Shown here one piece after another: positions 4,191 through 63,906 of a stretch of 64,000 nucleotides of DNA. Every line of letters begins with the position of its first letter. The first letter of the stretch is position 1. The notes under the pieces were generated by a model, which made no database searches, had not been told where the DNA came from, and was given only the letters and a program-made list of their open reading frames with translations. The stretch covers positions 158,207 through 222,206 of the forward strand of contig JBNLCO010000010.1 of NCBI GenBank assembly GCA_050303855.1, written 5' to 3'. This stretch comes from Candidatus Pacearchaeota archaeon (GTDB lineage Archaea > Nanobdellota > Nanobdellia > Pacearchaeales > GW2011-AR1). Both the position numbers and the translations under genes were made by a program.

Positions 4191-4196
4191 AAAAAT

Positions 4197-17329: not shown

Positions 17330-17417
17330 TGCGCGGACCGGGGATCGAACCCGGATCAACTGGTCTCTTCAGACAACCTGTGGAAGCCAGTTATTCTAAC
17401 CATTAAACTATCCACGC
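17330..17417 (-). tRNA. tRNA-Gly(UCC) with a 16-nt intron at canonical 37/38
   Basis: Hand-folded. Acceptor GCGTGGA/TCCGCGC, D-stem GTTT/GAAT, anticodon arm ACTGG-CTTCCA[CAGGTTGTCTGAAGAG]A-CCAGT, T-arm CCGGG-TTCGATC-CCCGG, discriminator A. The intron pairs CTTC/GAAG with the loop, consistent with a bulge-helix-bulge. Confidence 0.75.
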
Positions 17418-19149: not shown

Positions 19150-19264
19150 TAAGACGGCCATAGTAGCGATGGTTCCACCTGGTCTCTTTCCGAACCCAGA
19201 AGTTAAGCATCCTACGTTGTTACCGGTACTGTCCTGCAAGATGGGAAAGTAACAAGCTGTCCTA
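19150..19264 (+). rRNA. rrf: 5S ribosomal RNA (standalone, not linked to 16S/23S)
   Basis: GGCCATAGTAGCGATGGTTCCACCTGGTCTCTTTCCGAACCCAGAAGTTAAGC matches the conserved 5S loop B/helix III/loop C region. Helix I pairs TAAGACGGC with GCTGTCCTA. A T8 run follows. Confidence 0.75.
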
Positions 19265-20005
19265 CTTTTTTTTATAGAATTTATTTAATATTTGAACATA
19301 TTCTTTATTTATTCCTTCTAACCTAAAAATGACTACTTTCTTGAACCCAGATTTTTTTACAAAGTTCAGATCTTTTTCTAAATTCTCTGGAGAGAGGATT
19401 GGTTCGTTTCCAAGAATCCCTATCGCAATTGTCCCGAGAGATATAGAATGGTTCTCTTTATTTCTCAGCCCCATTAAATTAGATTTAACCCTTTTATTAA
19501 AAGCTCTTGGAAACATACTTGAATACCACATTATGCTCCGCTCATAATTGAGATTATAATTTAACCCAATTAACTTCATAAATTTTGAAACAAATGCGAA
19601 GGGATATTCTGCGGTAGTTACTCTTTCCTTGTTGTTCTTCAAGAATTCTAGGATAAGCTTTTTGTTTTTCTTAAAGTGAAAAATATTTCTAAAGTACATC
19701 TTCCATTTATTTCTTAGAGGCAGCTCCAGATCAATAAGAAGATGATTTTTTATGGAATTTAATTCATGGAATAATTCCTTAAGATCTTCTGTGTTGGAAA
19801 ATGGAGAAATCCAATAAGAATTTTTTACAATAGGCCAATATGCTACTTCAAGATCTTTTTTGTAAGACTTAGCTATCTTTTCGTATTTTTGGAATTCATT
19901 AATTGATTTAGAAGCAATAAATATTTTTGTTGGATATTTTATTAATTTTAGTTTAGAAAGATTTTCTTCATTTGGAAATTCTTCATAAAATTCTATCTCC
20001 ATCAA
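19262..20005 (-). CDS. hypothetical protein (247 aa)
   Basis: Long ORF with no recognisable motif. Its stop overlaps the 5S 3' end by 3 nt. Confidence 0.5.
   Translation of the reverse strand: MMEIEFYEEFPNEENLSKLKLIKYPTKIFIASKSINEFQKYEKIAKSYKKDLEVAYWPIVKNSYWISPFSNTEDLKELFHELNSIKNHLLIDLELPLRNKWKMYFRNIFHFKKNKKLILEFLKNNKERVTTAEYPFAFVSKFMKLIGLNYNLNYERSIMWYSSMFPRAFNKRVKSNLMGLRNKENHSISLGTIAIGILGNEPILSPENLEKDLNFVKKSGFKKVVIFRLEGINKEYVQILNKFYKKK
19266..19273 (+). terminator. oligo-T terminator after 5S rRNA
   Basis: T8 immediately 3' of 5S helix I. Confidence 0.4.
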
Positions 20006-37372: not shown

Positions 37373-38196
37373 CAAGGGTCATAATACCAGCATGGTGCGA
37401 TAAAGAAAGGATCCAAGTAAAGACCATCATCATAATACGTTTCTTCAACGGTTTCAACATAAGTTACGATCTCTTCTTCCTCAAATTCATCGCCATCATC
37501 TTCCTCAGAATTTTCTGCTTCATCGATCTCTTTCTGTTTTGCCATTAAATCCAATCTTAATTGTGTTCCGGCTTCAATTATATTGGTCATTATGTCTTCT
37601 TCTCCAGGGATATTTATTTGATCAAGAATATCATTTGTTTCACAAATCTCTAAGATTTCGTTCCACATCAGATCATTAACAAGATCAAACTCCCAACCTT
37701 CCTTTTCAAGGTCAAACCTTCCTTCAAAAACAAACAGCATAAAAACAACTTCTGTAACAGGAATGGTTTTTCCTTTTTTAGCATTTTGATTTTTATAAGC
37801 GCATACTGCAACCCTTAAGTCCTCCCACTTTTCATCATCAAGATATTTGTTCCACTCTTCTTCTTCCATATCATACCAGGAAGAAAAGGCAAATTCTCCG
37901 GCTTTAGTGTCAACTGCACAATAAAGGTCATAAGTATTAAGATAATCACTATATTTGTCCAGGAAATTTTGTAAAATTTCTCGGCCTTTTTCAGTTGGAA
38001 CATAGTATTTCTTACCTCCAATTGATTCTATTCTGACCGTTTTTTTACCAAGCATATATTCAAACAAAGGTTCGAGATAGGTTTGATTTCCCTCAAAAAC
38101 GATTGGAAAGTATCTCTTTTCCTGTATCATTTCCCGGAGGATAATAGAAGAAGCATATTGCTTCTTCTGTTCATCGGTTAAAACGTATTTTCTCAT
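37363..38196 (-). CDS. hypothetical protein with acidic C-terminal tail, adjacent to pspA (candidate PspA partner)
   Basis: 277 aa. GGAGG SD 8 nt upstream. Ends in an EEDDGDEFEEEE run and ..CWYYDPWYY. Starts 2 nt after the pspA stop. Confidence 0.5.
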   Translation of the reverse strand: MRKYVLTDEQKKQYASSIILREMIQEKRYFPIVFEGNQTYLEPLFEYMLGKKTVRIESIGGKKYYVPTEKGREILQNFLDKYSDYLNTYDLYCAVDTKAGEFAFSSWYDMEEEEWNKYLDDEKWEDLRVAVCAYKNQNAKKGKTIPVTEVVFMLFVFEGRFDLEKEGWEFDLVNDLMWNEILEICETNDILDQINIPGEEDIMTNIIEAGTQLRLDLMAKQKEIDEAENSEEDDGDEFEEEEIVTYVETVEETYYDDGLYLDPFFIAPCWYYDPWYY

Positions 38197-38198
38197 GA

Positions 38199-38906
38199 TT
38201 AATTTCCTCCTTTCATAAAATCATCAAATAACTTATTGTTATCTGTTTTTGAGGGTGTTTTCAGAAACTCATCAATATTGTCTGAAAGGGTTTTCCCTTC
38301 ATCAGCGATTTCGGCATATGCATCTGCTTTTGCCTGTTTTTTATTTACCTTCTCTTTCATACGATCAATTGTTTCCTTGGTTGACGAATTGCCCAGACCA
38401 GATAATTGTTTATTGATTTTAAGTTCTGCATCCGCAACCTTATCATCTGCCTTAAGTTCATCAACACTTTCCTCAGTCCCTTTAATGTCATCACGCATTG
38501 ACCTAATCTTATTTGCCAAGGCTTCTTCTTTGATTTTGATTTTAGCCGCTTTTTCTTTTGTATTTTTGGCTTTATCTTCATAATTTTCTTTCTTATTAAG
38601 GGCTTCAACAATCATGTTTTTAATTAATGATTTTTGAGTTTCATCAGGTTCTCCGTCATACCTTTCTTTAAGTTTGAGTGCTTTCTTATTCCACTCAATA
38701 CTTTTTTCCACATATCCTGAAGCTTCTCCCTCAATACCAATTCTAACCGCCTTAACCTCTGAATGGGTGCCGATTACTTCCTCCAAGTTATCCTTCATAT
38801 CCCGGATTGCTTGTTCGGTAATTTCAACCGGGTCTTCAAGAGCATCTACTGCTTTATTGGCTTTTGCTTTGCCAATAGTCACAATTCTTTTCCAAAGTTT
38901 ACTCAT
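38199..38906 (-). CDS. pspA: PspA/IM30/Vipp1 family protein (ESCRT-III superfamily)
   Basis: N-terminal IVTIGKAKANKAVDALEDPVEITEQAIRDMKDNLEEV aligns with PspA [37 protein letters not shown]. All-helical coiled coil, 235 aa. Confidence 0.7.
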   Translation of the reverse strand: MSKLWKRIVTIGKAKANKAVDALEDPVEITEQAIRDMKDNLEEVIGTHSEVKAVRIGIEGEASGYVEKSIEWNKKALKLKERYDGEPDETQKSLIKNMIVEALNKKENYEDKAKNTKEKAAKIKIKEEALANKIRSMRDDIKGTEESVDELKADDKVADAELKINKQLSGLGNSSTKETIDRMKEKVNKKQAKADAYAEIADEGKTLSDNIDEFLKTPSKTDNNKLFDDFMKGGN

Positions 38907-39000: not shown

Positions 39001-40260
39001 TTAATCTTTGTTTTTCAAACCATTCAATTCCATCTGCAATTGATTTATTGTGCTGTCTTGCTGTTGAACTGCCCTAACAAGAACTGCCACAACCTGGAAG
39101 TAATCCATAACAAGCTCACCTTTTTCATCAACAGAAACTGCTTCGGGTATAACTGTGCGAACATCCTGGGCAATGAACCCGATCAGATTTGTTTCGGGTA
39201 AACCTTCTTCAACAACATGTTCAGAGTCATAATTAAATGAAGCTACATTGAGAGCCAAAATTTCACTAAGACCATATTCCACACAATAGTTAATATTCTC
39301 TTTAGCCGTTGAATCACATTTGCTTCTTGACCTACTTCCACCTCCAGTGCTTCTGCTTCTTGAAGGAGCACTATAGCTTTTTTTAGTAGGTTTCGGAGAA
39401 GTCTTCGGCTTTGGAGTTGTTTTTGATTGATTTGGTTTGTTTGAAGAGGTGTTTGTTGGTTTCTTACTAAAACCACTTGCATCAACCTTTTTATTAGCAT
39501 CGCGTTTTTGGATCTGCTTCTGAGTTTGTGTCTGGCTACCAATTTTTTGATTATTTTTTTTGGCAGTCTGCGTTTTTTGAGCTGTTGATTTAGCTTTACT
39601 TGAAGTGTTATTCCAACTTTTGTTTGTGCTACTTTGGGGCCTGGAAGTTTTTTTGTAAGTTGTGGTTGTTCTTGCGGTCCTTACAACTGAACGAGAACTA
39701 TAAGCTCCAAAACCTACAGAAACATAAGGATTGTAGTAAGAAGGGTAATAGCCATAATAGTAAGGGTTAACATAATGTGCCCGGTAAGGTGAAAACCAAA
39801 AGAAGGTAGATGGATACACATACGGCCGCACATAATAGGCATCTGAGGGGTAATAAGAAGGGTTCCCTGCAATTGTTACTTGTTGGTTTACTTTATCATA
39901 ATTAACACTGCATATATCCGTTTTTCCATCTGCAAGTTGGGCTTCAAAAACAAGCTCGACCACTTGGCCAGAAGAATTATCTCCTTCTCTTACACTGATG
40001 AAATCAACATTCCCATCTTCATCTATATCCAAGTTGTTAATTCCTCCAGATTTGTTAACCTCCCGGATAAGATCTTCGGGATCAGGATATTTTACTACAA
40101 GTTCTCCTAAAGCCTGCAAATCAAAGTTCTGACCTGCAAGAGCTGTTGTTGCAGTAATGTTTACCTGTGGGGCCGGATGAGCCGGTTGTTGCCTTCTGCA
40201 GCCATTAAATGCTACACTTAATGTAAATATTAAAACTAATAAAAAATTAATTCTTTTCAT
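39001..40260 (-). CDS. lipoprotein with Tyr/Pro-rich and Ser/Thr/Lys-rich low-complexity linker and a C-terminal peptidase-S74/tail-fibre intramolecular-chaperone-like domain
   Basis: Lipobox AFNGC. YYxxYY-rich segment. C-terminal GFIAQDVRTVIPEAVSVDEKGELVMDYFQVVAVLVRAVQQQ...INQLQ matches the endosialidase-chaperone (S74) motif G-F-I-A-Q-[DE]-V...V-D-Y. Confidence 0.45.
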   Translation of the reverse strand: MKRINFLLVLIFTLSVAFNGCRRQQPAHPAPQVNITATTALAGQNFDLQALGELVVKYPDPEDLIREVNKSGGINNLDIDEDGNVDFISVREGDNSSGQVVELVFEAQLADGKTDICSVNYDKVNQQVTIAGNPSYYPSDAYYVRPYVYPSTFFWFSPYRAHYVNPYYYGYYPSYYNPYVSVGFGAYSSRSVVRTARTTTTYKKTSRPQSSTNKSWNNTSSKAKSTAQKTQTAKKNNQKIGSQTQTQKQIQKRDANKKVDASGFSKKPTNTSSNKPNQSKTTPKPKTSPKPTKKSYSAPSRSRSTGGGSRSRSKCDSTAKENINYCVEYGLSEILALNVASFNYDSEHVVEEGLPETNLIGFIAQDVRTVIPEAVSVDEKGELVMDYFQVVAVLVRAVQQQDSTINQLQMELNGLKNKD

Positions 40261-40992: not shown

Positions 40993-42816
40993 TTACTGTT
41001 TAAAACTCCTGGTTATAATTGGTTGTTCAAATTTATGTTCTTCCCTAAACATGTTAAGTGCTTCTGTGTGATTAAGCCCTGTGTTTTCTTCATACAGTTG
41101 AACAAAAGCCTTGACAATATCCTCTTTAGTTAAACCTTCAGGATTATCCATTGAATTATTAAGCTCATTTCGTTCAATGGCAATACTCGTAGCACGATCA
41201 ACTACTCCTTTAATCATGGCCCCATTAAGTATCTGTGGGAGTGCAAAGATTTTTTTCTTTCCTTTTTCTTCAAACTCATAAAACTTGTACTTTTCAGAAA
41301 AAAGTTCTTTCACACAGAAATCGATTAATTCTTTAAGGCCCAACCCTTTTGAAAGAGGTATTTCTTTGAAATGTATTCTAAATATCTCTTTTGAACCGTT
41401 TTTATCAGGCCTTCCTATATTTATTTTCCAGTCAATCCTATTGTCTCTTACAACCGCAGGGTCAATTATATCTGCTCTATTTGTTGCCATGATAACCAAT
41501 GCTCCACTTTCGGTCAAACCATCCATTTCTGCAAGAAGTGCCGGAACAAGGGTGTTCTGGAAGTCAGAACTTATTCCTTTTCCTCGCTCACTAAAAGGTG
41601 CTTCTGCTTCGTCAAAGAAGATTATTGCGGGGAAGCCATATTTCTTTTTATGTTCAGCAGCTCTTCTAAAAACATCTCTTATTATTTCTTCCGGATCGCC
41701 TAACCATTTAGTAAGCATTTCGGGGCCTTTTATGTAAATGAAACAAGAATTAATTGCTTCAGGGTCCTCAATTTTATAGATATCAGCTATAGCCCTTGCA
41801 GAAGCTTTTACAAGTAGTGTTTTTCCGCAACCTGGAGGTCCAAGAAGAAGTATTCCTTTTACAGGCTTCTTATTAAAGAACTTGTAAAGGGCTTTCCTCT
41901 TGTGTGGCCCCTCAATAGCATCTCTCATTCTTTTCTTAGCTTTTTCAAGACCTCCAATATCTTCCCAGGTAACATTAACTTCTTCTGTAAAAGCAAATTT
42001 GTTTTGGGCCTTTCCTATATTTTTTAAGATAAGATTCCTCCCTTCATCTAATACTACGCGGTCGCCTTTTTCTACTTCTTTGCTTTTGTAAACTGAAACA
42101 AGTGAGGAATTAAGAGAAACTATACAGAAATCACCTACAACCTCCCTAACGATTGCAAGATTACCAACAAAATGATGGGGAATAATTTCAATCATTTTAG
42201 CAGATTTTGAAGTAGTTTTTACCAAATCTCCAGGACAAACAAGACCAATAAGATGTTCAGGAACTGTTGTTTCGATTAACCTACCTTCTAAAGAAATAAT
42301 CGCTCTTAAGGGATTTTCTTTTGAATAAGAATCGTTTTTTAATAACAGATCACAAAAACCACCATCTACTTCTGGATGTCCCGAACGACAAGGAAGATTT
42401 TCACCCGGAAACCTCACTCCAACTAACCCTTTACCCAGCTCATCATAAATAATTGTTCCTTCTTTAGAAGTCTTTTCATATAATGGGCTATTTTTATTAA
42501 GTTTCACAGTCTTTCCATTTAAGAAACTTGAATAAGGGGCTTCCACAAATAGATTTTCCTGAGATTTTGTAAACATACGTATTACTCTTGCAATGGCAAA
42601 AGAATTAGAAGTCAAATCAATGTTCTTTTTCTCCAATGCTTCTATTTTTCTATCTCTTTCTTTGAGTTCATTATTGAGATTTAGAATTCTTTCAAAGGTA
42701 TTCTCTCCCCCAGCCTCATGAAATAAATTATTGCTAAGGTCTTTGTTTTTTTTCTGAAGCTCATCAATTCTCTTTAGAAGAGAATTGATGAGCTCATTAG
42801 AATGAATTGTATTCAT
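40993..42816 (-). CDS. Mpa/ARC-like proteasome-associated AAA+ ATPase (coiled coil + OB-like inter-domain + AAA)
   Basis: 607 aa. [19 protein letters not shown] resembles Mpa [56 protein letters not shown] resembles [56 protein letters not shown] resembles FNSGAMIQNVVDRAKKNAI. Walker A [8 protein letters not shown]. N-terminal coiled coil. Confidence 0.6.
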   Translation of the reverse strand: [607 protein letters not shown]

Positions 42817-42849
42817 ATTACTCTAATTAAATTGGTGGATTAATTTGGG

Positions 42850-43737
42850 TTAGTTACTAATGCAATCTTCATGACTCAAATCAAATTCAGCTATTTTTTG
42901 TAAATTTGAAGAATCAAGACCTTTTAACCTTACATCGTGCATAATCTCATTAAACTCTTTTGAATGTTTTATGCTTGCAGGATCATCTGTGGACCAAAAA
43001 GGTATTTTTATATCCTTTACAATTTTGGATCCTTCTTTACCCCCTTCATAATATTGAGATAGAACAATTAATCGAGTTCCCATAAACAGAGCTTCTTCTA
43101 AATCATGAGTCACAAAGAAAATTGTTTGATTCGTTTTAGTCCATAAATCCTTTATGAACAATTGTACTTTCTCTCTGGTACCCACATCAAGGGCTCCTAA
43201 AGGTTCATCCATAAGAAGTATTTCCGGCTTCATGATCATCGATTGAGCAATAGCTGCTCTTTGTCTCTGTCCTCCAGACAATTGTTCGGGGTACTTTTCT
43301 GCATGTTCAAGAAGCCCAAAAGTTTCTAAGTAACTATCTGCCTCTTGTACAAATTCTGAACGTTTTTTCTTATAAAAGAAAGGGAACAATAAGGCTAATA
43401 AATTCTCAATCAGAGAAAAAGACTCCATTCTTAATCCAAAGGTAACATTCATCCTAACAGTCATGAAATCAAATAGAGAATACTTCTGGAATACAACTCC
43501 TCTGACGCGTTGCGGGCGGCGAATACGTTTACCATTCATTTCAACCAATCCTTTTGAGGGTCTTTCGGACCCAAGGATAAGCCTAAGCAAAGTTGATTTT
43601 CCGCAACCAGTAGGGCCAACTATGGAAACAAATTCCCCTTTCCTTATCTTTAAACTAATATCGTTGAGAATAATTTTGTCACCATATTGTTGAAATGCAT
43701 TGTGCAAATTTAAAACATAATTCTTTTCCATAGTCAA
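42850..43737 (-). CDS. ABC transporter ATP-binding protein (NitT/TauT family)
   Basis: GPTGCGKST Walker A, LSGGQRQRAAIA signature, LLMDEPLGALD Walker B. Confidence 0.8.
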   Translation of the reverse strand: MTMEKNYVLNLHNAFQQYGDKIILNDISLKIRKGEFVSIVGPTGCGKSTLLRLILGSERPSKGLVEMNGKRIRRPQRVRGVVFQKYSLFDFMTVRMNVTFGLRMESFSLIENLLALLFPFFYKKKRSEFVQEADSYLETFGLLEHAEKYPEQLSGGQRQRAAIAQSMIMKPEILLMDEPLGALDVGTREKVQLFIKDLWTKTNQTIFFVTHDLEEALFMGTRLIVLSQYYEGGKEGSKIVKDIKIPFWSTDDPASIKHSKEFNEIMHDVRLKGLDSSNLQKIAEFDLSHEDCISN

Positions 43738-43738
43738 A

Positions 43739-44782
43739 TTATTTAATTTTATTACTACCCAATTTTTTTATCCACATACGGAAACTCCAATCCAGGAGAA
43801 ATGCGAGTAAGCTTATCCAAACAACATAAGGGATAATCAAAGCCATATTTAAATATCTTATAACTAGAAAAATCCTATATCCAAGACCAGATTCTGCCCC
43901 AAGAGCCTCTGCTGCAATAAGAAATAAAACTGCAGCCTTAAAATTCAACCGGATAGTATCCATTACTTTCGGTATTATTTGAGGGTAAATCACAAAAAAT
44001 ATTGTTTCAAGTGTGCTTGATTTAAGAGTCATGGATTTAACAATCTGTTCATCAGGAACATCTCTCACTCTTAGAAAAGTATCAAGAATTATTGTTGGAG
44101 CAACACCCATAATAATCAATGCTATTTTAGACTTATCTTCCATACCGAAAATCATGAGAAGTATTGGTAAAATTGCGAGCGTAGGGATTTTATCAAAAAA
44201 TAAAATAAAACGATATAAAAATTTTTCAGCATAACTAAAGGATCCCATAAATAACCCCAATGTAACCCCTCCAAAAATTACAAAAAGCATTGCGATAACA
44301 AACCTTTTTCCGCTTGCAAGCGTGTCTTTAAGAAGCATAGATTCACCCTTAGACAAAACTTGTTTCCGGTATCCATTTCTCCACATATCAATTCTGGAAG
44401 AAAATTCGCCCATCCGAAATGCATCTTTGTCTCTTTGTTTAGCTTCAGCATAAGATTTAGGGTTGTCGTTTTCTACAATATCTCCATTTTCATCATACTC
44501 TTCCTTTATCTCTATTTCAAAGACTGCTCTTCTGAAGGATTCCCACATACGAGAAGGGGTTGGCATAATTTTGTCCATTTTATTCTCTTCGTTCCTCTTA
44601 TGAGATTTACCCACATAAAGATTAATTCCCAAAAGAAAGAGTATAAGAGATAAAAATAAAGAAATTCTAGGTCCAGGTTTAGCCCTCAAATCAAATATAT
44701 GATAGGCCATACCATGAACTTCCTTGAAAAAAAGGATTATCTGTTGAGATATCCAGAAAAAAGGATTTTTATTATTTCTCAT
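43739..44782 (-). CDS. ABC transporter permease (NitT/TauT-type) with long N-terminal extension
   Basis: C-terminal BPD-transport permease fold with about 6 TM helices. Confidence 0.6.
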   Translation of the reverse strand: MRNNKNPFFWISQQIILFFKEVHGMAYHIFDLRAKPGPRISLFLSLILFLLGINLYVGKSHKRNEENKMDKIMPTPSRMWESFRRAVFEIEIKEEYDENGDIVENDNPKSYAEAKQRDKDAFRMGEFSSRIDMWRNGYRKQVLSKGESMLLKDTLASGKRFVIAMLFVIFGGVTLGLFMGSFSYAEKFLYRFILFFDKIPTLAILPILLMIFGMEDKSKIALIIMGVAPTIILDTFLRVRDVPDEQIVKSMTLKSSTLETIFFVIYPQIIPKVMDTIRLNFKAAVLFLIAAEALGAESGLGYRIFLVIRYLNMALIIPYVVWISLLAFLLDWSFRMWIKKLGSNKIK

Positions 44783-44864
44783 AACTTTTTTTTTAATTAT
44801 TTGTAAAAAGAAAGATTACCTCATCAAGGTAATCTTTCATAATAGGTTGCTTTGGAATTATAGC

Positions 44865-45935
44865 TTACTTAAGCTTTCCTTCAGCAGCCATCTGCATATA
44901 TTCTGTACTGAATATGAATAAGATGTTGTTTGTGTTGCCTTGTATTGTTCCATCAGGAAACTTTATTCCAATATCTCCTTTACTTGTTCCTTCTCCAAAT
45001 AAATCATATTTTGAACAAAAATTTCCAACCCTTTCCATTGTTTTTTTAATTTCTGCTCCTTTGGTATAGTTAACAGCATCAACAGGATTATAGAACATTG
45101 CAGTTGTTTTTAATTGATTTTCATATTCAATTAAAGTGGATCCCCCCTCTCTTGCCATTACTTCTTTTGCAGATTTTGCCTGAGCAGAACGAGAAGACAT
45201 GATATTCATTATTTCGTACCATGCACCGGTTAAGGCTTTTGCAAAATCAGGGTTATCTTTAAGAACATCGTTACGTACAAAACACAAATCAAGAATTTCT
45301 CCAGGAATGTCTGCAGAAGAAAAGAAAACATGAGTTCCAGGAACTTTTGCTACATTCATGGCAATAGGATTCCATGTAGTCACATATTTGATTCCTCCTG
45401 TTTTGTACATACCTTCAATTTGCTTTTCGTCTGAAATATTAACAACTTTTACATCATCTATACTTTTTCCTTTTTTATCTAAAAACCTGAAAAACATGTA
45501 GTGAGATACGCTGTACTCCACCATGTAGTTTGGGCTCCTTAATAATTCTTCAAAAGAACTATTGTATCCTTCTACCTTGTCATTACCATTGGAAAAATCA
45601 CCATTGATAATGGCTGTTACGGCTACTCCTGATGCAACAGGAATAGTTAGGGCATCCATATTAGTCATGACACATGCATCAGCATTACCATTTGTAAAGT
45701 TGTTTATGGAAGTTATATAATCCTGTTTAAGAATCTTGATTGTAATCCCATACTTCGCTGCGTGCTTTGCAACAATACCTGATTCAACCCCATAAGCCCA
45801 GGGATTCCATCCTGCGTAAACAGACCATACAAAAGTAAAATCCTTCTTTTTCTGAGCTGAAGAATTTTGAGTGTTAATCACTGTTAAAACTAATGCCAAA
45901 AAGGCAATCACTAAAAATTTAATTGAATTTTTCAT
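44865..45935 (-). CDS. ABC transporter substrate-binding protein (NMT1/SsuA-like), secreted
   Basis: Signal peptide ..NSSAQ, SBP fold. Paralogous to the N-terminal domains of the 48144 and 50563 genes. Confidence 0.6.
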   Translation of the reverse strand: MKNSIKFLVIAFLALVLTVINTQNSSAQKKKDFTFVWSVYAGWNPWAYGVESGIVAKHAAKYGITIKILKQDYITSINNFTNGNADACVMTNMDALTIPVASGVAVTAIINGDFSNGNDKVEGYNSSFEELLRSPNYMVEYSVSHYMFFRFLDKKGKSIDDVKVVNISDEKQIEGMYKTGGIKYVTTWNPIAMNVAKVPGTHVFFSSADIPGEILDLCFVRNDVLKDNPDFAKALTGAWYEIMNIMSSRSAQAKSAKEVMAREGGSTLIEYENQLKTTAMFYNPVDAVNYTKGAEIKKTMERVGNFCSKYDLFGEGTSKGDIGIKFPDGTIQGNTNNILFIFSTEYMQMAAEGKLK

Positions 45936-46042
45936 AATAAAAATTTTTAATTGTTAAACTTAATTTGAGTTTATTTGTTAATTTATTAATAATTTAATTT
46001 ATGGTCCCTACTTCAATTAAGAAGTAGGGCCTGAAAGAGAGA

Positions 46043-47242
46043 TTAAAAAATTTCAGCAAGATCTTTTGTTAACTGACTACGTAAAGCATTACCTTTTTGC
46101 ATTTTTTCATTTTCTTTCTCAACATCTTTATTTAGGGTGTCAATTTGGTTTGCTTCATCTTTTAATACAGGAGTAATTTCATTTATGAATGTACGGTAAT
46201 TGTCAACTGCGCTTAAAGTGTGTTGAACGGCTTCAGTAATTTTCTGCATATCAATACCATTTTGGGCAGCAGTTTTGAACACTTCCACAACAGTTTCATT
46301 CAATTCTTTTGCATTCTCAACAAGCATATTGCCTGTTAAATCGTTCAGTGCAGCAAGGGCGTCGTTTACCTGTCTTGCATCTTTAACTGCCATTTTCTGT
46401 GTAAGGGCAATTTTTAAAGTATCAATGGTCATATCAGAATTCCTAATACCATTTATTAATTGACGATTAGTACGAACAATTACCTCAAAACTCATGATTC
46501 CTTGGTTTTTCACAACGCGTCCTTTTTCAAGAGCATTTATCCTTTGAGTTACGGGGAATAACATCTCTTGTTGTAGAAGATCTGCCCACTCTGTATCAGA
46601 GGCATTAGCTATTTCTTTTTCCAACTTTTGTTGCAATAATTTCGCAAACACTATAGCTTTTTTTATTGCCTTAATTTGATTCCTCATGTTTTCCTTCTCA
46701 CCATTAAGAGTAGTATTATTTCGTTCCAATTTCTCTTTTCCTTCTTTAAGGCCGTCCATAATGTCCTTAATTATTACTTTTGATGACTCATACTTCTCCA
46801 AGTATCGGCTTAATACATTTGGTCCAAAAGTTCTTCTTGTAAACCTTGCAGCCATCCCTCTTAATCCCCTGCCATTCCAATTAAATGTGTGAGGGTTCAA
46901 TGCATCAACCTGGTCCCTTAATCCCAAAAGACTATCAACAATTACCTTGTTACCGGCGCCTGTCATCAATTCTTTAATCTGCCTGTCAAGGAGTTCATTT
47001 GATCCGGAAGTCATAGCTGTATTTCCAATAAAATCTATACTATTGGTCTTATCAGAAGTTTTTACATCCTTATCTATGAGTTTTTGGAAAAATTGGTCTA
47101 CTTTAGGAGACACTTCCTTCACAATTTCAGGATCAATGTCTTCAACTTCAACCGTTTCTCTAAAATCGAGATCAGAATTGTTTTTTACATCGTTTTTAAT
47201 CTGATCTGCACTTGGAAATTCCATTACTTGTTTTTTTGCCAT
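46043..47242 (-). CDS. TelA-like (toxic anion resistance / KlaA) family protein
   Basis: About 400 aa, all-helical with long coiled coils. Length and architecture fit TelA/YaaN. Followed by an XpaC-like membrane protein as in Bacillus yaaN-xpaC. Confidence 0.45.
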   Translation of the reverse strand: MAKKQVMEFPSADQIKNDVKNNSDLDFRETVEVEDIDPEIVKEVSPKVDQFFQKLIDKDVKTSDKTNSIDFIGNTAMTSGSNELLDRQIKELMTGAGNKVIVDSLLGLRDQVDALNPHTFNWNGRGLRGMAARFTRRTFGPNVLSRYLEKYESSKVIIKDIMDGLKEGKEKLERNNTTLNGEKENMRNQIKAIKKAIVFAKLLQQKLEKEIANASDTEWADLLQQEMLFPVTQRINALEKGRVVKNQGIMSFEVIVRTNRQLINGIRNSDMTIDTLKIALTQKMAVKDARQVNDALAALNDLTGNMLVENAKELNETVVEVFKTAAQNGIDMQKITEAVQHTLSAVDNYRTFINEITPVLKDEANQIDTLNKDVEKENEKMQKGNALRSQLTKDLAEIF

Positions 47243-47271
47243 TTTTTCAAATTTTGGTTATTAAAAATATA

Positions 47272-48141
47272 CTATAAATCATCTAACAGGTTTTTCCTGT
47301 CATCTAAATCGTAATCTGAGAGCTGTAAAACAGCAGCACGTAATTCCATCATAGACTGTTCGATTTTTAATCGACTTTTGTGGTCTGTGGTGGTGATAGA
47401 GCCGATTTCTTTGGTTGCTTCATCAATTAGGGTCATTGCTTCTTCATTCTGAGCAAGCAACAAGTTTATTCTTTCAGTTTCATCCTCTAAAAGCTTAAGG
47501 CGTTTCTTCAAGGCTTCAAGTTCAATTCTTGTAGACTCCTTACTTCCATTATCCTTTCCTAATTTCTTTATCCTTCCTCTAATATAATCCCCATCTATAT
47601 TTTCTAGATTTTTTAGGATAAGGACAATTTCCTCCAAATTATTTGTTCCAGAATTTACAACTTCAAGAGCAACCGTATGATATTTTGCATAAACCATTTC
47701 AGAAGGATCAAACTTTTGGTCTAAAACTTCTTTCAACGCTTCAAGTTTTTCTTGTAATTTGTGAAACTGGCGTACACCCCTCTGAAGTCTAAAATTCTCA
47801 AGATCATGCATAACTTTCTCACGCTTTCTTTCATTGTGTTCTTCAATAATCTGGGTAAGCCTCTTTGTGTACTTTTTCTCAAACTTGTCAAATCCAAAGA
47901 ATAAAGGAAACCCCCAACGACCTGCAACAACAATGCCTCCTCCAATCACGGCAATCAGCCCAATATTCCATCCAAAAAGTAAGCCTGAAATGATCCCAAG
48001 AAAAGGCAAGGAATAACTGGCCTGTGTAGACCAGTCATTTTTGATGGATTCCTTTAAAGCTTTTTCTACAGCTTTTTCTGTAAAATCAGTAGCTGTAGGA
48101 ACTTTTTGGATACTTTTTGTTGTGGAATTATTTTTGCCCAT
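47272..48141 (-). CDS. XpaC-like membrane-anchored coiled-coil protein (TelA partner)
   Basis: Two N-terminal TM helices (LPFLGIISGLLFGWNIGLIAVIGGGIVVAG), then a coiled coil. Context-based assignment. Confidence 0.35.
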   Translation of the reverse strand: MGKNNSTTKSIQKVPTATDFTEKAVEKALKESIKNDWSTQASYSLPFLGIISGLLFGWNIGLIAVIGGGIVVAGRWGFPLFFGFDKFEKKYTKRLTQIIEEHNERKREKVMHDLENFRLQRGVRQFHKLQEKLEALKEVLDQKFDPSEMVYAKYHTVALEVVNSGTNNLEEIVLILKNLENIDGDYIRGRIKKLGKDNGSKESTRIELEALKKRLKLLEDETERINLLLAQNEEAMTLIDEATKEIGSITTTDHKSRLKIEQSMMELRAAVLQLSDYDLDDRKNLLDDL

Positions 48142-48143
48142 AT

Positions 48144-49697
48144 TTATTGAACAAGTACAAACTCCACCCTCATCATCCTTGCCCGATAACTTCTTGAGGA
48201 AGTGCTTTCTCCTGGTTTAAGTCTTGGAGGCTTTTCATCTGCATAACCCTTTGCATGAAGTCGATTTGAATCTATTCCATGAATAGCTATGAGATGCTGG
48301 CGAACCACATCTGCTCTTTCTTGAGAGAGTTTCAAATTAGCCTGTTTATCTCCTGAAGCAGTATGCCCTTGAATTAATATCCTGTACCCCGGATAATTGT
48401 TGGTTATAAGCATTGCCACTTCATTTATTATTTCTTCGGCTTGGAATTGTAATTCAGAGGTTCCTGCCTGGAAAGGAATATCTTGAACCCTCAAGTTTCC
48501 TGCCTCTGTCATATTGCCCCATGCTTTATCCTTGAGAGCATCAAAAGTGATGTTCTTTCCAGTAGTTGACCCTACAACAGCTCCTCCTGATCTAATCAAC
48601 CCTTCAATAAAACTACTGTTTATTATACTGTATGGATCTTCTACTTCTGCATCAATACCTACAGAATGGTGCACATTATTCCAAGCATAAATTGAATTAA
48701 CAATTCCCTCATCAATATTCAGCCCAGCATTATTTGCGGTATTTATTCCGAACAATTGCAAAGCATTATCGTGTAAGGTATACAAGCGAATATTCTTAAT
48801 CAAACTCTCGGTTTCACTTTTGGAAGTTCCAGCATCAATTTTAATCATTTTGAATCTCTCCTCATCATGACTATTGTAATATTCTACAACCTCATAATAA
48901 GTTTTTAATATTGTGTTAACCTCTTTCTCATCCCTAAGAATGCTCTTTTGGCTAAACACAAAAACATCCACAATATAGTTACGGAATTTTTCAGAACTCC
49001 AAACTTTCTTCATCCCAAGTTTTTCTTGTGCCTGGGAAACCTCTGGTTCCCACAATAAGAATAAATTCCCTAAAGATTTATCTTTTTGGGCTTTTTTAGC
49101 CAAAGAATAAACCTCTTTGGAACCTCCAAGACGAACAACAGCACAATTTCCATTGATCAAATTTTCCAAATCAAAATCAACGGCCGTCAAATTAAATAAG
49201 TCTTCACTTGGCGAATTGTCAGTTAAAACAAACTTCAGATCTGGGTCATCAAGATCATTAACCTTGTTAAATTGGAAATCCGGAAATGCCATAATTGCAT
49301 CAGCTCCAACCGATTCACATATTCCCCCTACAATCTTTCCAGGGAAATGATGTTTGAATCCTACACGTTTGTATGTGCTTATGGGAATTGCAATAAATTG
49401 GTATTCTCCTTTGTCAAACTTTTCCAATCTGGTTTCATAAGCCCCTCCATCATCAACAAACTTCAAAACAATGCCCTTGCGTGCTAAACGTTTCTTCATT
49501 TCGTGGGATCGAATCAGAGAATATCCGGCATATCCATCCCCTGCCCAAACAATCGTTTTGGCGGAAGAATTGGAGTCGGAAGATATTAGGCTATCCCGTT
49601 TCTCTTTCCATTGAGGGAAGAATTTAGCAAACAATAATCCAAGGGTTCCCAATATTAAGATTATAATAAAAATATAACCTTTTGATTTTCTTTTCAT
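48144..49697 (-). CDS. membrane-anchored SBP-like domain fused to C-terminal OmpA_C-like (peptidoglycan-binding-type) domain
   Basis: N-terminal TM anchor. C-terminal YRILIQGHTASGDKQANLKLSQERADVVRQHL is OmpA/MotB C-terminal domain-like. Confidence 0.55.
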   Translation of the reverse strand: MKRKSKGYIFIIILILGTLGLLFAKFFPQWKEKRDSLISSDSNSSAKTIVWAGDGYAGYSLIRSHEMKKRLARKGIVLKFVDDGGAYETRLEKFDKGEYQFIAIPISTYKRVGFKHHFPGKIVGGICESVGADAIMAFPDFQFNKVNDLDDPDLKFVLTDNSPSEDLFNLTAVDFDLENLINGNCAVVRLGGSKEVYSLAKKAQKDKSLGNLFLLWEPEVSQAQEKLGMKKVWSSEKFRNYIVDVFVFSQKSILRDEKEVNTILKTYYEVVEYYNSHDEERFKMIKIDAGTSKSETESLIKNIRLYTLHDNALQLFGINTANNAGLNIDEGIVNSIYAWNNVHHSVGIDAEVEDPYSIINSSFIEGLIRSGGAVVGSTTGKNITFDALKDKAWGNMTEAGNLRVQDIPFQAGTSELQFQAEEIINEVAMLITNNYPGYRILIQGHTASGDKQANLKLSQERADVVRQHLIAIHGIDSNRLHAKGYADEKPPRLKPGESTSSRSYRARMMRVEFVLVQ

Positions 49698-49790
49698 AAC
49701 GATTTTAATTTTAATTGTTAATTTAAAATCAAAAAGAAGGAAAGGCTAACCATTCCTCCTTTTTGGGAAACTAATTTATTTTGCAGTATC

Positions 49791-50543
49791 CTATTCTGAG
49801 AATAGAGATTCGTCAAACACACTAGGATCAAATACTTCCGTTTCACCTACAACTTCCTCCAGAGCCTTTTCGAGACTTTGATAATCATTGGCATCACGGT
49901 AATACCTAGAGTATTGTTTTAAAGTGTGTTCCCGGTCAAGACACAATCCAATAGTGTATGTCATAATAAATGGATATTTTGATGCGTGATTCACTGCATC
50001 CAAAATCTCTTCTTCATAAGCTTCACCATCAGTTACAATTACCAAGTTATATTCTCCATAACCCAATTGTTTTTTATATTGTGCAACAAGGCGATCAACA
50101 CCAAACTTCATTGCATAACCCAAAGGGGTCCCTCCGCTTGCACTACTCTTTGTTATGGCTTTCTCAAATGCGGCCCGGTTATTTGATCCTATTGGAACTA
50201 CTTCTTGGCAATCATTCTGTCCGCCATTGCCATATATCAACAAACCAAGATTTACATCTGAAGGTACTTTCTTAAGGAACCTTTTTACTGATTCTTTCGC
50301 ACCATCTATTTTTCTATTTCCAGAACAACGATCACTCATGCTTCCACTACCATCAAATATAAAATAGAAGTTTCTGGTTATTGAAATTTCTCCAGCACTT
50401 TTCTCAAAGGTTATCACCTGAGGTTGAGTCCCTTTTTCTTTCTGTCCCTGATTATCTGAAGAAGAATTGTCAGGAGGATTATAAGTACAGCCCGCAATTA
50501 GGACAATTAATCCAATTAGTAAGAATAATTTTTTGTTTTTCAT
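49791..50543 (-). CDS. von Willebrand factor type A (vWA) lipoprotein
   Basis: Lipobox LIAGC from the internal Met (the track ORF extends to 50606). MIDAS-like DGSGSM..GGTPLG..VTDGE. A GGGGG SD lies upstream of 50543. Confidence 0.65.
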   Translation of the reverse strand: MKNKKLFLLIGLIVLIAGCTYNPPDNSSSDNQGQKEKGTQPQVITFEKSAGEISITRNFYFIFDGSGSMSDRCSGNRKIDGAKESVKRFLKKVPSDVNLGLLIYGNGGQNDCQEVVPIGSNNRAAFEKAITKSSASGGTPLGYAMKFGVDRLVAQYKKQLGYGEYNLVIVTDGEAYEEEILDAVNHASKYPFIMTYTIGLCLDREHTLKQYSRYYRDANDYQSLEKALEEVVGETEVFDPSVFDESLFSE

Positions 50544-50562
50544 CTTAATTTTCCCCCTAATT

Positions 50563-52275
50563 TTATTGATATAATGATGGATCAAATTCAAGTGATTCTG
50601 ACTCAAGATTTTTTATCCTAAAAACAACCCTGAAATTTTCAAGCCACTCATCTTTAGTTGAGGGTTTTGGATACTTTGGAGAATCCACCCCACGTCCAGT
50701 TGCATGCATTTGGGTTTTGTCTACAACGATGCCTCTTGTCTTTGCGTATTTTACAAATACTTCTTCAACCATTTTTGCTCTCTCTACTGAAAGATTCTTT
50801 GCAATTTGAGTTATTTGGGCAATCTCTTGATTTGAAGCACCACTTTTCTTTGCTTTCAATATTCCTCCTCTATCAGAATGACCTTCTATAACAACTATTG
50901 CACCTGCATAAGTTTCCATTATATCAAGAGCTTTGGCAAATTGAGTTTTGTACTCTTCAACTGTAAAATCCTGTTGATTTGGTTTGAAATAAATTTCAAC
51001 AACAAACAAAGTGTTATCTGTTTCCCAGGTATCTGACTCCGCTTTAATTTTACTTTCTATAACTTGAGCTACTTTCTTTTCATCAAATTTTGGCTGTGAC
51101 TTAACTACAGGAGTTGTGGTTGTTGCAGTTGCATATTTAAGACCTGACTTCAAAGAACTATAATCCCAGTTCGCCTGCTTAAGATTAGCGTTTCCTGTCA
51201 AAAGACCCATTTTAGCAAAAGAGGATTGAATTTCAGAATTCAATTTATCAAAGTTCCTAGTTGTTCCTTTACCTGTAAAGAAAGCAAAGTTTCCATTAAA
51301 ACCGGCAAATTCGCAGTCACCAATCATTGCTTTTGCATCTTCACTCATAGAAGTTGTTCCAAAAAGCAGACCAGAAGATTTTGACATTAATTGTTCGTAT
51401 TTAGATTGCTGAGCACTTTTATTTTTTAACAGATCGCTCAACTTTTCTTCTGACATCATTAATGCCTTTGTTAATTTTTGTACTTCTGATTTATGGCTGT
51501 TGTAATAATCTTCCCTCACAGCATATACATCTGCAATTATTCTGCTTGCGGATTTGGTGGAAACGTAAATCTTTGCTCCTTTGACTGAACCATCAGCACC
51601 AGTGCCAACGTTTCCATTTGAAGTTAAAGCTAAAGCATCGGGGATTATACAAAATGCAGCATCCAATGAAGGATCACCAATGAAGGATTCAACAGGATTA
51701 CTTTTTCCAAAATCATTATATGACAATTCTTTTGTCCATTTAAATGAAACAGTATTTAACCTTCCCGCCTTATTAAAAATATTTGCTGCATAATCCATAT
51801 GAGGGCCATATAGCTGCAATGCAACTGTTTTGATATTAGAAGGGGTTTTTCCACTTCTTACAACAAGGGCATCTCCGCCTACAGACCAGGTTAATTTATA
51901 AAAAACAACTAAACCTGTACCTGCTTTTTGAAATGCTTCTGCGGCTTCCTTAACCATCCCCATTGTTCCTCTCAAGTACGGGGTTTTTCCATTAATCACA
52001 TCCTGAACCTGCTTTTTGAAATCATTTTCACAAAATAACTCCACATTTAACCCATTAGACGAAAACACCCCTTCCATTTCTCCATAGATTGTTAAAATAT
52101 CTCCACCCCAGGTGATTAAAGGAACAGGAATTTTAGATCCCATTTGAACTGGTTTTAAAGAAGTATTTACCACCTGCGATAAAGGTTTTGCTGTTTCAAA
52201 ACTTTGCGCAAAAGTATTTCCAAAGAATAATGTTGTTAAGGTCATAATAAGACCAAAAATAATTAATTTTTTCAT
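50563..52275 (-). CDS. secreted SBP-like domain fused to C-terminal OmpA_C-like domain
   Basis: Signal peptide ..NTFAQ. C-terminal VVIEGHSDRGG...NQEIAQITQIAKNLSVERAKMVEEV is OmpA_C-like. Confidence 0.55.
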   Translation of the reverse strand: MKKLIIFGLIMTLTTLFFGNTFAQSFETAKPLSQVVNTSLKPVQMGSKIPVPLITWGGDILTIYGEMEGVFSSNGLNVELFCENDFKKQVQDVINGKTPYLRGTMGMVKEAAEAFQKAGTGLVVFYKLTWSVGGDALVVRSGKTPSNIKTVALQLYGPHMDYAANIFNKAGRLNTVSFKWTKELSYNDFGKSNPVESFIGDPSLDAAFCIIPDALALTSNGNVGTGADGSVKGAKIYVSTKSASRIIADVYAVREDYYNSHKSEVQKLTKALMMSEEKLSDLLKNKSAQQSKYEQLMSKSSGLLFGTTSMSEDAKAMIGDCEFAGFNGNFAFFTGKGTTRNFDKLNSEIQSSFAKMGLLTGNANLKQANWDYSSLKSGLKYATATTTTPVVKSQPKFDEKKVAQVIESKIKAESDTWETDNTLFVVEIYFKPNQQDFTVEEYKTQFAKALDIMETYAGAIVVIEGHSDRGGILKAKKSGASNQEIAQITQIAKNLSVERAKMVEEVFVKYAKTRGIVVDKTQMHATGRGVDSPKYPKPSTKDEWLENFRVVFRIKNLESESLEFDPSLYQ

Positions 52276-52338
52276 AATTTAAAATTTAATTTGTTTGACT
52301 CTTTTATAAAAATTTATTAATAATTATTTAACTAAAAA

Positions 52339-52539
52339 TTAGTTCTTTTTCCTTATTATAAAATGCCACAATAAGAAGATAATTATTGCGAAACCAAGGA
52401 AAGAAAATATAATGCTCAGAGCGAATGAAAATATTCCACCCAGAAGAACAAAAATTGCCCGAACGATCCCCAATTTAAAAGCGAGGAATACTGCAATAAG
52501 AATAATTGTCCAAAATAAACCACCTTTTTGTTTTTTCAT
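52339..52539 (-). CDS. small two-TM membrane protein
   Basis: 66 aa, two hydrophobic helices. Confidence 0.4.
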   Translation of the reverse strand: MKKQKGGLFWTIILIAVFLAFKLGIVRAIFVLLGGIFSFALSIIFSFLGFAIIIFLLWHFIIRKKN

Positions 52540-63306: not shown

Positions 63307-63906
63307 TTAATTTTGTAAATATGAATTGTTTAATCTTATGAGCTTCTTCCAGCCTTTTTCGTTCTTCTCTTCTTTTATTTCTATTAATCCTTTGTTCATT
63401 AAATCGTTCTTTACTATGTTCCCCTTTCTTGAAGACAGTCCTATTTTGTTGTAGAAATCCACTGTGCTAAGTATATGTTTTGGATTTTCAATTAAGAATT
63501 TCATAAAGGCTTTTTCTTCTTCATTTAAGTATTTCATAAAATTGTATAATTCTTCCTTAATCACTTCAATTTCTGATTTTTGTTCTGATTCTATAGGCTT
63601 CTCTGTATATTGATTTATCATCCCAGATATAGAATACTTATCTTCCTTTTCAGTTAATTGATCTTCATCAATATTGACGCTCTTAAATTGCCCTTTAAGA
63701 GCTAGATTAATCACTTTAATTACATCAGATCCGGTGTAGTAGTTATCTTTAAGACCTTCCTCAAGAGATTGTTCTATTTCTCTAAGAGTTCTACCTTGAG
63801 ATAATTGATCTATTGTAAAAGTGTAAAGAACCTTCTGATTTTCAGTTAAGTCTTTAGCTTCAGGAAGAACTATTTCAACTTCTACTTCTTTTATGTCTTC
63901 AGGCAC
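63307..63906 (-). CDS. hypothetical protein, possible C-terminal winged-helix
   Basis: 199-aa ORF. The N-terminus may extend beyond 63906. Confidence 0.4.
   Translation of the reverse strand: MPEDIKEVEVEIVLPEAKDLTENQKVLYTFTIDQLSQGRTLREIEQSLEEGLKDNYYTGSDVIKVINLALKGQFKSVNIDEDQLTEKEDKYSISGMINQYTEKPIESEQKSEIEVIKEELYNFMKYLNEEEKAFMKFLIENPKHILSTVDFYNKIGLSSRKGNIVKNDLMNKGLIEIKEEKNEKGWKKLIRLNNSYLQN

Follow-up and report, generated by a model that had tools for sequence, protein, structure and literature searches.

What would a Pacearchaeota archaeon do with a cluster of TelA-, XpaC- and OmpA-type envelope genes, and where did it obtain them? The question is raised by a 64,000-nt stretch of contig JBNLCO010000010.1 (hereafter the window, meaning this whole stretch), in which the initial annotation had singled out five consecutive same-strand genes at 46043-52275, encoding a TelA-like protein, an XpaC-like protein, a von Willebrand factor type A (vWA) lipoprotein and two proteins that join a solute-binding protein (SBP) domain to a C-terminal OmpA domain (SBP::OmpA_C). 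The list of open reading frames (ORFs) of the window places all five at these coordinates on the minus strand. Thus, the genes are real, but the span is incomplete: four further minus-strand genes lie directly downstream, and the unit runs on to 40993 (nine genes, 40993-52275, minus strand). What had been missed is a wider conserved operon of eight to nine genes that also includes an ATP-binding cassette (ABC) importer of the NitT/TauT type and an AAA+ ATPase. We give slightly better than even chances to the reading that this nine-gene operon of a DPANN archaeon came from Bacteroidota and that it couples the protection of the membrane under envelope stress to the uptake of a solute.

Gene content and layout of the operon

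In the order of transcription, the operon consists of the following features:

50563-52275, minus strand: SBP::OmpA_C fusion 1, 570 aa; cleavable signal peptide, TauA/SsuA-type domain, OmpA_C domain with an insert of ~15 aa
49791-50543, minus strand: vWA lipoprotein, 250 aa counted from the ATG; lipobox LIAGC, full metal ion-dependent adhesion site (MIDAS), PF00092
48144-49697, minus strand: SBP::OmpA_C fusion 2, 517 aa; N-terminal transmembrane anchor, TauA/SsuA-fold domain, OmpA_C domain
47272-48141, minus strand: XpaC-like membrane anchor, 289 aa; short cytosolic N-terminus, hairpin of two transmembrane segments, helical cytosolic tail of ~200 aa
46043-47242, minus strand: TelA (toxic anion resistance family), 399 aa; PF05816; cytosolic, helical
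44865-45935, minus strand: free periplasmic-type substrate-binding protein, 356 aa; signal peptide; TIGR03427, NMT1_2, NMT1
44810-44838, minus strand: terminator- or attenuator-like hairpin (weak evidence) with a stem of 13 bp and TTTTT after it, in the gap that separates the SBP gene from that of the permease
43739-44782, minus strand: ABC permease of the NitT/TauT family, 347 aa; BPD_transp_1; N-terminal extension of ~150 aa
42850-43737, minus strand: ABC ATPase, 295 aa; ABC_tran; TauB/NtrCD-type models
40993-42816, minus strand: ARC/Mpa-like classical AAA+ ATPase, 607 aa; coiled-coil N-terminus, one AAA domain

Since the genes are on the minus strand, the five first described are transcribed from 52275 to 46043, i.e. 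from the 570-aa protein towards TelA, the reverse of the order in which they had been listed. All nine ORFs are intact and tightly packed, with intergenic gaps of 1-107 nt, and the motifs that were checked (GHSD/RA, MIDAS) are intact as well. Scans of the operon region for promoters and terminators gave results no better than those for shuffled sequence, terminator-like sites being no commoner than in the shuffled controls. An AT-rich TTTATAAA box is found ~35 nt upstream of the ATG of the first gene, and a small ORF (52338-52538, minus strand; about 66 aa, two hydrophobic helices) is situated between an upstream gene for a 292-aa lipoprotein-like protein and the start of the operon.

Conservation and distribution

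A scan of the GTDB species representatives yielded 311 relatives of the 517-aa protein confirmed by tblastn. We examined 79 loci; the counts per component refer to the 46 loci with sufficient flanking DNA, and the order of genes was derived from tblastn and ORF clustering. The recurrent order is SBP::OmpA1 (present in 45 of the 46 loci), vWA (43), SBP::OmpA2, XpaC-like (42), TelA or its replacement, free SBP (45), and the permease and ATPase (44 each). This synteny holds in about 45 of the 46 loci. According to the record titles, this eight-gene core is carried by about 12 bacterial phyla: Bacteroidota, Acidobacteriota (Holophagae, Aminicenantes, Acanthopleuribacter, Sulfidibacter), Melainabacteria/Obscuribacterales, a cyanobacterium, Verrucomicrobiota (Haloferula), Planctomycetota, Zixibacteria, Poribacteria, KSB1, Desulfobacterales, Bdellovibrionales and Gammaproteobacteria. 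The operon is also found on Vibrio megaplasmids, for instance pAM7 of V. rotiferianus, where the RefSeq annotation is generic for every gene, and in three other metagenome-assembled genomes (MAGs) labelled archaeal, at loci that we call L019, L026 and L033. In L033, from Nanoarchaeota P6-17, the ABC permease and ATPase are encoded upstream of the operon and not downstream. The SBP::OmpA_C fusion had been described as unusual; in view of the number of its relatives and of its standard PGAP name ('phosphate ABC transporter substrate-binding/OmpA family protein', for the family of the 517-aa protein), this description must be abandoned, and neither the fusion nor the cluster is a rare oddity.

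The neighborhood of the operon shows some further recurrent or suggestive genes. L033 has a 412-aa AAA ATPase upstream (3673-4908) and a Band_7/SPFH protein downstream (15175-16143); Band-7 is a reported partner of PspA (PMC11237479). A conserved upstream block with multi-transmembrane spermidine-synthase-like proteins (assigned by eye, without a hidden Markov model (HMM)) and Ser/Thr-kinase-like proteins is shared by three loci from Holophagae and Acanthopleuribacter (L039, L048 and L049), and a multi-transmembrane protein of the spermidine-synthase-like kind is a reported PspA-associated architecture (PMC11237479).

TelA and its exchange for a PspA-like protein

TelA is a widespread family, named for toxic-anion resistance. 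The assignment of the 399-aa protein to it proved correct: PF05816 scores 135.6 bits (cutoff 30) and is matched almost over its full length (profile positions 12-328 of 332), and a profile search for solved relatives returned none. Phenotypes of the family are known only for the homologues from Listeria, Bacillus, Enterococcus and RK2 (PMC12791056, PMC6811118).

The slot that follows the XpaC-like gene is occupied in 43 of the 46 loci by TelA or by a ~270-aa coiled-coil protein, and never by both. Divergent TelA copies from other loci still match PF05816 (137 and 72 bits), and for the ~270-aa PspA-like protein the matches to Vipp1/PspA structures in the PDB are in register, at E about 0.3. Each of the two occupants has its own ATPase. 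The PspA-like protein is always (19/19) paired with a ~580-aa ATPase restricted to this variant, which reveals a single C-terminal AAA match and is taken to be of the double-AAA ('inactive-AAA+AAA') type, while the only AAA partner of TelA is an ARC-like ATPase with a single AAA domain (12 of the 24 TelA loci). The representative of the latter in the window matches AAA with 103.6 bits and pup_AAA with 281.9 bits, below the cutoff of 504.75; its orthologues are encoded at the end of the operon in a sister clade from Bacteroidales and upstream of the operon in L019. Judged from the sequences, the exchange of TelA for the PspA-like protein is a clean non-orthologous displacement. The mutually exclusive occupancy of one slot argues that both proteins do equivalent jobs, each with its own AAA+ ATPase, and TelA may be a functional analogue of the PspA/ESCRT-III scaffolds.

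The window also contains a bona fide PspA/IM30 gene (38199-38906, minus strand; 92.7 bits), ~2 kb downstream of the AAA+ gene and outside the conserved block, so that the archaeon has both TelA and PspA. It is followed after 2 nt by a gene for a highly acidic 277-aa protein (37363-38196, minus strand). About 8 kb downstream of the operon, this DPANN archaeon encodes an 867-aa protein similar to the major vault protein (30699-33302, minus strand; MVP_shoulder, 75.9 bits; Vault_3, 38.3 bits) with a long C-terminal coiled coil. A relationship between TelA and the latter was considered and rejected, as hhalign found no similarity.

The XpaC-like membrane anchor

The 289-aa protein possesses one hydrophobic hairpin (residues 45-80), and the rest of the chain is helical; the all-helical DSSP assignment comes from a single-sequence AlphaFold2 (AF2) model of low confidence (predicted local distance difference test (pLDDT) 50). 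Its stop codon precedes the telA start by 29 nt. No Pfam match was found, and PF10112 (Halogen_Hydrol) gave none at E<=0.1. A word-indexed search for homologues returned the query alone, the profile of the family detected only coiled-coil noise among PDB sequences, and an exhaustive search of public data revealed 575 representative clusters, which come without names or genomic context.

The relationship to XpaC became apparent through the locus L026, in which the same position of the operon is occupied by a 242-aa bona fide PF10112 protein (49.4 bits, cutoff 29.8), again followed by TelA. The profile of the XpaC-like family aligns with this protein in hhalign with 98.5% probability (E 1.5e-15), over the N-terminal 74 columns only, which correspond to a conserved cytosolic motif and the transmembrane hairpin. 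Transmembrane segments can inflate profile scores, and we therefore regard this as good but partial evidence of homology. The XpaC-like family thus appears to share the membrane module and the position of XpaC, with a divergent tail. Of the original XpaC assignment, the expected match to the PF10112 HMM is absent; the N-terminal homology, the layout with two transmembrane segments and the place next to telA speak in its favor.

The SBP::OmpA_C proteins and the vWA lipoprotein

The 517-aa protein exhibits a confident match of its C-terminus to OmpA (PF00691; 58.9 bits, cutoff 27.2), together with matches to the YiaD, MotB, Pal and TssL models of NCBIfam that stay below their cutoffs, a transmembrane helix at residues 4-30 and a middle part for which SsuA_fam scores only 25.2 bits (cutoff 163.5). 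An AF2 model built with 21 homologues (pLDDT 87.6, predicted template-modelling score 0.82) was compared with the PDB by Foldseek, which identified TauA (6ssy) and SsuA (2x26) as relatives of the N-terminal domain (TMt 0.78-0.81, E about 1e-13) and the Capnocytophaga OmpA_C domain (5wtp; 38% identity, rmsd 2.0 Å) as a relative of the C-terminal one. Several Asp, Tyr and Trp columns are invariant in the 21 aligned sequences of the family.

In the 570-aa protein, which carries a signal peptide, the OmpA score of 24.7 bits stays under the cutoff (27.2), probably on account of an insert of ~15 aa between GHSD and NLSxERA; the domain keeps the motif EGHSD...NLSVERA. The 570-aa protein is a paralogue of the 517-aa one: the profile of the 517-aa family aligns with it (hhalign, 92%) across the second SBP lobe and OmpA_C. 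The claim that both C-terminal domains are OmpA_C by HMM is hence borne out for the 517-aa protein and falls short of the threshold for the other. As for the binding domains, described as NMT1/SsuA-like, the Pfam searches detected neither NMT1 nor NMT1_2 in the fused domains of the two proteins; the fold is that of TauA/SsuA, and the fused domains align with the free NMT1-type SBP of the operon (hhalign, 92.5%), which makes three paralogous binding proteins. With HMM, Foldseek and hhalign taken together, the domain identities of the two fusions stand. In the structures of Pal and Acinetobacter baumannii OmpA, the residues that contact peptidoglycan are the Asp of GHTD and the Arg of LSxxRA. 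The family of the 517-aa protein reads GHT[G/A]xGD, with the Asp displaced by three positions in comparison to GHTD and with RA conserved.

The vWA protein was likewise identified correctly. It matches PF00092 with 46.4 bits (cutoff 23.8) and VWA_2 with 36.1 bits, its MIDAS motif is complete, and none of the five positions of D-x-S-x-S/T/D varies among the 69 members of the family. Its ORF reaches a TTG codon at 50606 (49791-50606), but translation probably begins at the ATG at 50543, which gives an N-terminus MKNKK... leading to the LIAGC lipobox.

The ABC importer and its candidate ligand

The free SBP scores 382.3 bits with TIGR03427 (ABC_peri_uca; cutoff 333.9), in addition to its NMT1_2 and NMT1 matches in Pfam. 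The permease is recognized by BPD_transp_1 (62.4 bits) and by the TauC, SsuC and NtrB models, and has detectable transmembrane segments; the ATPase is recognized by ABC_tran (116.8 bits) and models of the TauB/NtrCD type. GimA, an SBP of the NitT/TauT family, binds guanidine at about 97 nM in a pocket of Trp/Trp/Phe and two Asp residues (PMC12704784). The free SBP of the window contains a motif AGWNPW, with the same W-x-x-W spacing as W59/W62 of the GimA guanidine pocket (PMC12704784). Membership in TIGR03427 and the W-x-x-W motif together hint at a cationic nitrogen ligand, and we mention a small compound of this type as only a lead. Neither a urea/guanidine carboxylase nor an allophanate hydrolase was found among the window ORFs scanned, and no guanidine riboswitch was detected.

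On the same grounds one could regard the operon as mainly a nutrient-scavenging importer, with the wall-tethered SBPs as antennae for a guanidine- or urea-like compound and TelA, the XpaC-like protein and the AAA+ ATPase as a buffer against the toxicity of the solute; guanidine is toxic above millimolar levels (PMC12704784). This explanation, which we consider unlikely, draws on the score of the free SBP above the cutoff of a family named 'putative urea ABC transporter SBP', on the GimA precedent with its shared Trp spacing (PMC12704784) and on the invariant Asp, Tyr and Trp columns of the 517-aa family. However, the window scans revealed no urea/guanidine carboxylase, hydrolase or riboswitch that would go with it, the membership of GimA itself in TIGR03427 is an assumption, a tethered SBP::OmpA_C protein serving as a transport antenna would be without precedent, and neither the AAA+ ATPase nor the vWA lipoprotein, with its strict conservation, would be accounted for.

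Archaeal host and horizontal origin

That the DNA is archaeal, as had been stated, is confirmed by several genes of the window. The DUF655-S13-S4-S11-RpoD operon is in archaeal gene order, SecD and SecF are separate proteins with best scores on archaeal models, and the closest named relatives of RpoD come from Pacearchaeota and Nanoarchaeota MAGs (54-59% identity). For RpoD as well as for the 517-aa protein the longest contig on record measures 268,280 nt, in agreement with a single contig. A neighbor-joining tree of five concatenated operon proteins (39 loci, 1967 columns, 100 bootstraps) groups the window with L019, titled 'uncultured archaeon', and with the clade of Bacteroidales that carries the ARC-like AAA gene, at 100% bootstrap, and this group is nested inside Bacteroidota. 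In the same tree L026 pairs with an uncultured bacterium (100%), and L033 branches apart; if the archaeal labels are right, these separate branches imply at least three transfers from bacteria to archaea. The flanks of L019, L026 and L033 contain only ORFans and uninformative domains.

The closest relatives of the operon are bacterial and only 45-50% identical. Its composition is that of the host: GC is 0.351 and GC at third codon positions (GC3) is 0.25-0.31, versus GC 0.328 and GC3 0.21-0.35 for host genes, whereas the sister operons from Bacteroidales have a GC of 0.44-0.47. Nesting within Bacteroidota in combination with a host-like GC3 indicates an old horizontal transfer rather than contamination, and the host-like composition, the intact ORFs and motifs and a shared flanking gene (63307-63906, for which the flank of L033, the Nanoarchaeota locus, has a homologue of 40% identity) speak for a retained transfer and against a chimera or a relic. 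A chimeric assembly was considered and was rejected in view of GC3 and of the linkage to archaeal genes. Thus, the archaeal host and the horizontal origin are established, and the operon was apparently acquired from Bacteroidota by a DPANN archaeon of the Pacearchaeota/Nanoarchaeota group.

The window also encodes a DUF481 protein (35541-36272, minus strand), a member of a family typical of bacterial outer membranes. DUF481 homologues (28-31% identity) adjoin the operon in Reichenbachiella (L022) and in a Bacteroidia MAG (L045), which suggests co-transfer or functional linkage.

Another conceivable role is peculiar to the archaeon. In a device for cell-cell contact, the SBP::OmpA_C and vWA proteins would grip the peptidoglycan of a bacterial host or prey, the ABC importer would take up leaked metabolites, and the archaeal membrane at the junction would be guarded by TelA, the XpaC-like protein and the AAA+ ATPase. 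Woesearchaeota/Pacearchaeota have murein transglycosylases, for which attachment to bacterial walls or their degradation has been proposed (PMC8204110, PMC9723730). In the archaeal copies the OmpA_C motifs, the signal peptide, the transmembrane anchor and the lipobox are retained and the composition is ameliorated, the acquisitions in MAGs labelled archaeal number at least three, and the Bacteroidales donor lineage would be a plausible partner. Nonetheless, this scenario is purely inferential, the window yielded no peptidoglycan hydrolase, and in bacteria the same operon clearly serves their own envelope, so that we hold it for improbable. If it were true, the operon would provide a molecular handle on an archaeon-on-bacterium symbiosis, with a Bacteroidales relative of the donor as the probable partner.

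Patchy distribution, several horizontal transfers and carriage on plasmids in Vibrio would also be expected of a biological-conflict system that is directed against phages or toxins, resembles the Ter/vWA/AAA+ ones and travels on mobile elements, and TelA, vWA and AAA+ domains do recur in conflict systems. We regard such a role as very improbable: the PADLOC defence models returned only generic P-loop and MotB matches, no nuclease, protease, kinase or TerB/TerD partners accompany the genes, and a full solute importer is atypical for defence. Finally, one might suspect that the operon arose through faulty assembly or binning, or that it is decaying and without function in the archaeon, since it comes from a metagenome assembly and its closest relatives are bacterial and of low identity. 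We find this hardly credible: the nine intact, tightly spaced ORFs lie among archaeal genes of this 64-kb stretch, their GC3 is indistinguishable from that of the host and unlike that of the donor clade, the gene at 63307-63906 has its homologue beside the operon of L033, and a contig of the Logan assembly is 100% identical across 5.2 kb.

Proposed function

The reading that we favor, membrane protection under envelope stress coupled to solute uptake, can be formulated as a series of steps, each of which, like the ligand, we infer from the domains and their arrangement. On the cytosolic side, the XpaC-like anchor would draw TelA to the membrane, TelA would act there as a protective scaffold similar to PspA/LiaH, and the AAA+ ATPase would remodel or recycle it. 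On the outer side, the two wall-fixed binding proteins and the MIDAS lipoprotein, possibly as an adaptor, would form a complex for the sensing or capture of a small solute, one of the wall-fixed proteins being additionally tethered to the membrane by its transmembrane helix, in the manner of MotB and TssL. The free binding protein would feed the ABC importer. Altogether, the status of the envelope or the uptake of the solute might in this way be coupled to the protection of the membrane.

Several observations weigh against this proposal. The similarity of the ~270-aa protein to PspA/IM30 is weak (two of the 18 members have a Pfam match, the better one at E 7.8e-4). None of 38 members of the XpaC-like family matches PF10112 or Snf7 at E<=1, hhalign finds no similarity of this family to the PspA-like family, the TelA family or the PspA of the window itself, and the AF2 model of the 289-aa protein (pLDDT 50) is unfit for a fold search. 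By sequence the free SBP has no solved relative. The canonical Asp of GHTD is absent from the 517-aa family, which renders the binding of peptidoglycan uncertain even in bacteria, and DPANN archaea are not known to possess peptidoglycan. As to the origin, the tree was calculated by neighbor joining on 39 loci and not by maximum likelihood, and L019, L026 and L033 are archaeal by record titles only, their 21-kb flanks being devoid of archaeal markers.

The exchange of TelA for a PspA-like protein constitutes comparative-genomic evidence for a PspA-like job of TelA at the membrane, with remodelling by an ATPase, an idea that can be tested in the culturable carriers Vibrio, Acanthopleuribacter, Sulfidibacter and Haloferula. 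The operon as such encodes a large, deeply conserved machine of the envelope, which occurs in about a dozen bacterial phyla, and its apparently repeated acquisition and intact retention in genome-reduced DPANN archaea make it a candidate for the debate on contact between Woesearchaeota/Pacearchaeota and bacteria.

Other genes in the window

The window also contains the following features:

39001-40260, minus strand: 419-aa protein, secreted or lipoprotein-like, in which a long region of low complexity is made up of Ser, Thr, Lys and Pro; the C-terminus is a Peptidase_S74 domain, an intramolecular chaperone known from tail-spike or endosialidase proteins of phages
36279-37346, minus strand: GluR0-like ligand-gated channel, in which an Ion_trans_2 pore splits SBP_bac_3
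33436-35106, minus strand: very acidic 556-aa protein with tandem repeats of ~58 aa, each with the motif ...DDDITSFLGEVNYGTEFCKALVP...
19150-19265, plus strand: stand-alone 5S rRNA gene, unlinked to 16S or 23S
17330-17417, minus strand: 88-nt tRNA, possibly intron-containing, with an anticodon unresolved by ARAGORN

Comparison with known systems

The initial annotation had referred the TelA-XpaC genes to the Ter systems. Ter clusters (terZABCDE, TerY-P) indeed have TelA-family and vWA-domain proteins in common with the operon, but the vWA protein described here is a secreted lipoprotein and not a cytosolic TerY, and the window ORFs that were scanned include no TerB, TerC, TerD, kinase or phosphatase, so that the cluster is not a Ter system. 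Another parallel is the xpaC-telA (yaaN) pair of Firmicutes, with the same order (anchor upstream of telA) and the same layout of two transmembrane segments and a helical tail, although the anchor of the window fails PF10112. The Firmicutes pair stands alone, under the control of envelope-stress two-component systems, whereas that of the window is embedded in a nine-gene operon. The Firmicutes genes act in envelope stress: in Enterococcus faecium, xpaC-telA affects daptomycin binding and lipid microdomains (PMC6811118), and in Listeria it is tied to responses and tolerance to nisin and bacteriocins (PMC12791056).

The 517-aa protein shares the N-terminal transmembrane helix and the C-terminal OmpA_C domain with MotB, the long form of TssL and the Pal/YiaD class, and its C-terminal domain is also matched by the periplasmic domain of TssL in Foldseek. 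It differs from them in the whole TauA/SsuA-type domain inserted between the anchor and OmpA_C, in the replaced Asp of GHTD and in the lack of stator or secretion partners. The importer resembles GimABC and the TIGR03427 systems in its SBP, which exceeds the TIGR03427 cutoff, and in the NitT/TauT type of its permease and ATPase, and differs from them in having neither guanidine or urea catabolic genes nearby nor a riboswitch.

The most similar system was described by Ravi et al. in 2024, in a brief account (section 18 and Text S2.2), as operons with PspA, a membrane-anchored divergent Snf7, an inactive-AAA+AAA protein, an ABC ATPase, a permease and PBPB+OmpA (PMC11237479). The authors proposed that these operons use ATP to remodel membranes in connection with the transport of solutes, with OGG56892.1 as an example (PMC11237479). 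Common to these operons and to that of the window are SBP::OmpA_C, the ABC permease and ATPase, a coiled-coil protein with a transmembrane anchor, a cytosolic helical stress protein and an AAA+ ATPase, and the variant of the surveyed family with the PspA-like protein and the double AAA corresponds to the published one. In contrast, the window has TelA in place of PspA, a single ARC-like AAA in place of the double AAA, two SBP::OmpA_C paralogues plus a free SBP, an invariant vWA lipoprotein, a different gene order and an archaeal host. The layout of the XpaC-like protein would fit a membrane-anchored divergent Snf7, but Pfam gave no Snf7 match and hhalign no similarity to PspA. The terms vWA and TelA are absent from the text and supplement of Ravi et al. 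(PMC11237479), and our literature searches retrieved no description of the TelA/XpaC variant, the vWA protein, the duplication, the swap, the carriage on plasmids or the DPANN hosts. What we believe to be new is the form of the operon that has TelA and an XpaC-like protein, together with its invariant vWA lipoprotein, the duplication of SBP::OmpA_C, the strict exchange of TelA for a PspA-like protein, the plasmid carriage and the presence in DPANN archaea. With no PspA within the operon and no double AAA, the window operon is not a strict member of the class of Ravi et al.; by analogy, it is best filed as a new variant of this PspA operon class, and it would work in the way proposed for that class.

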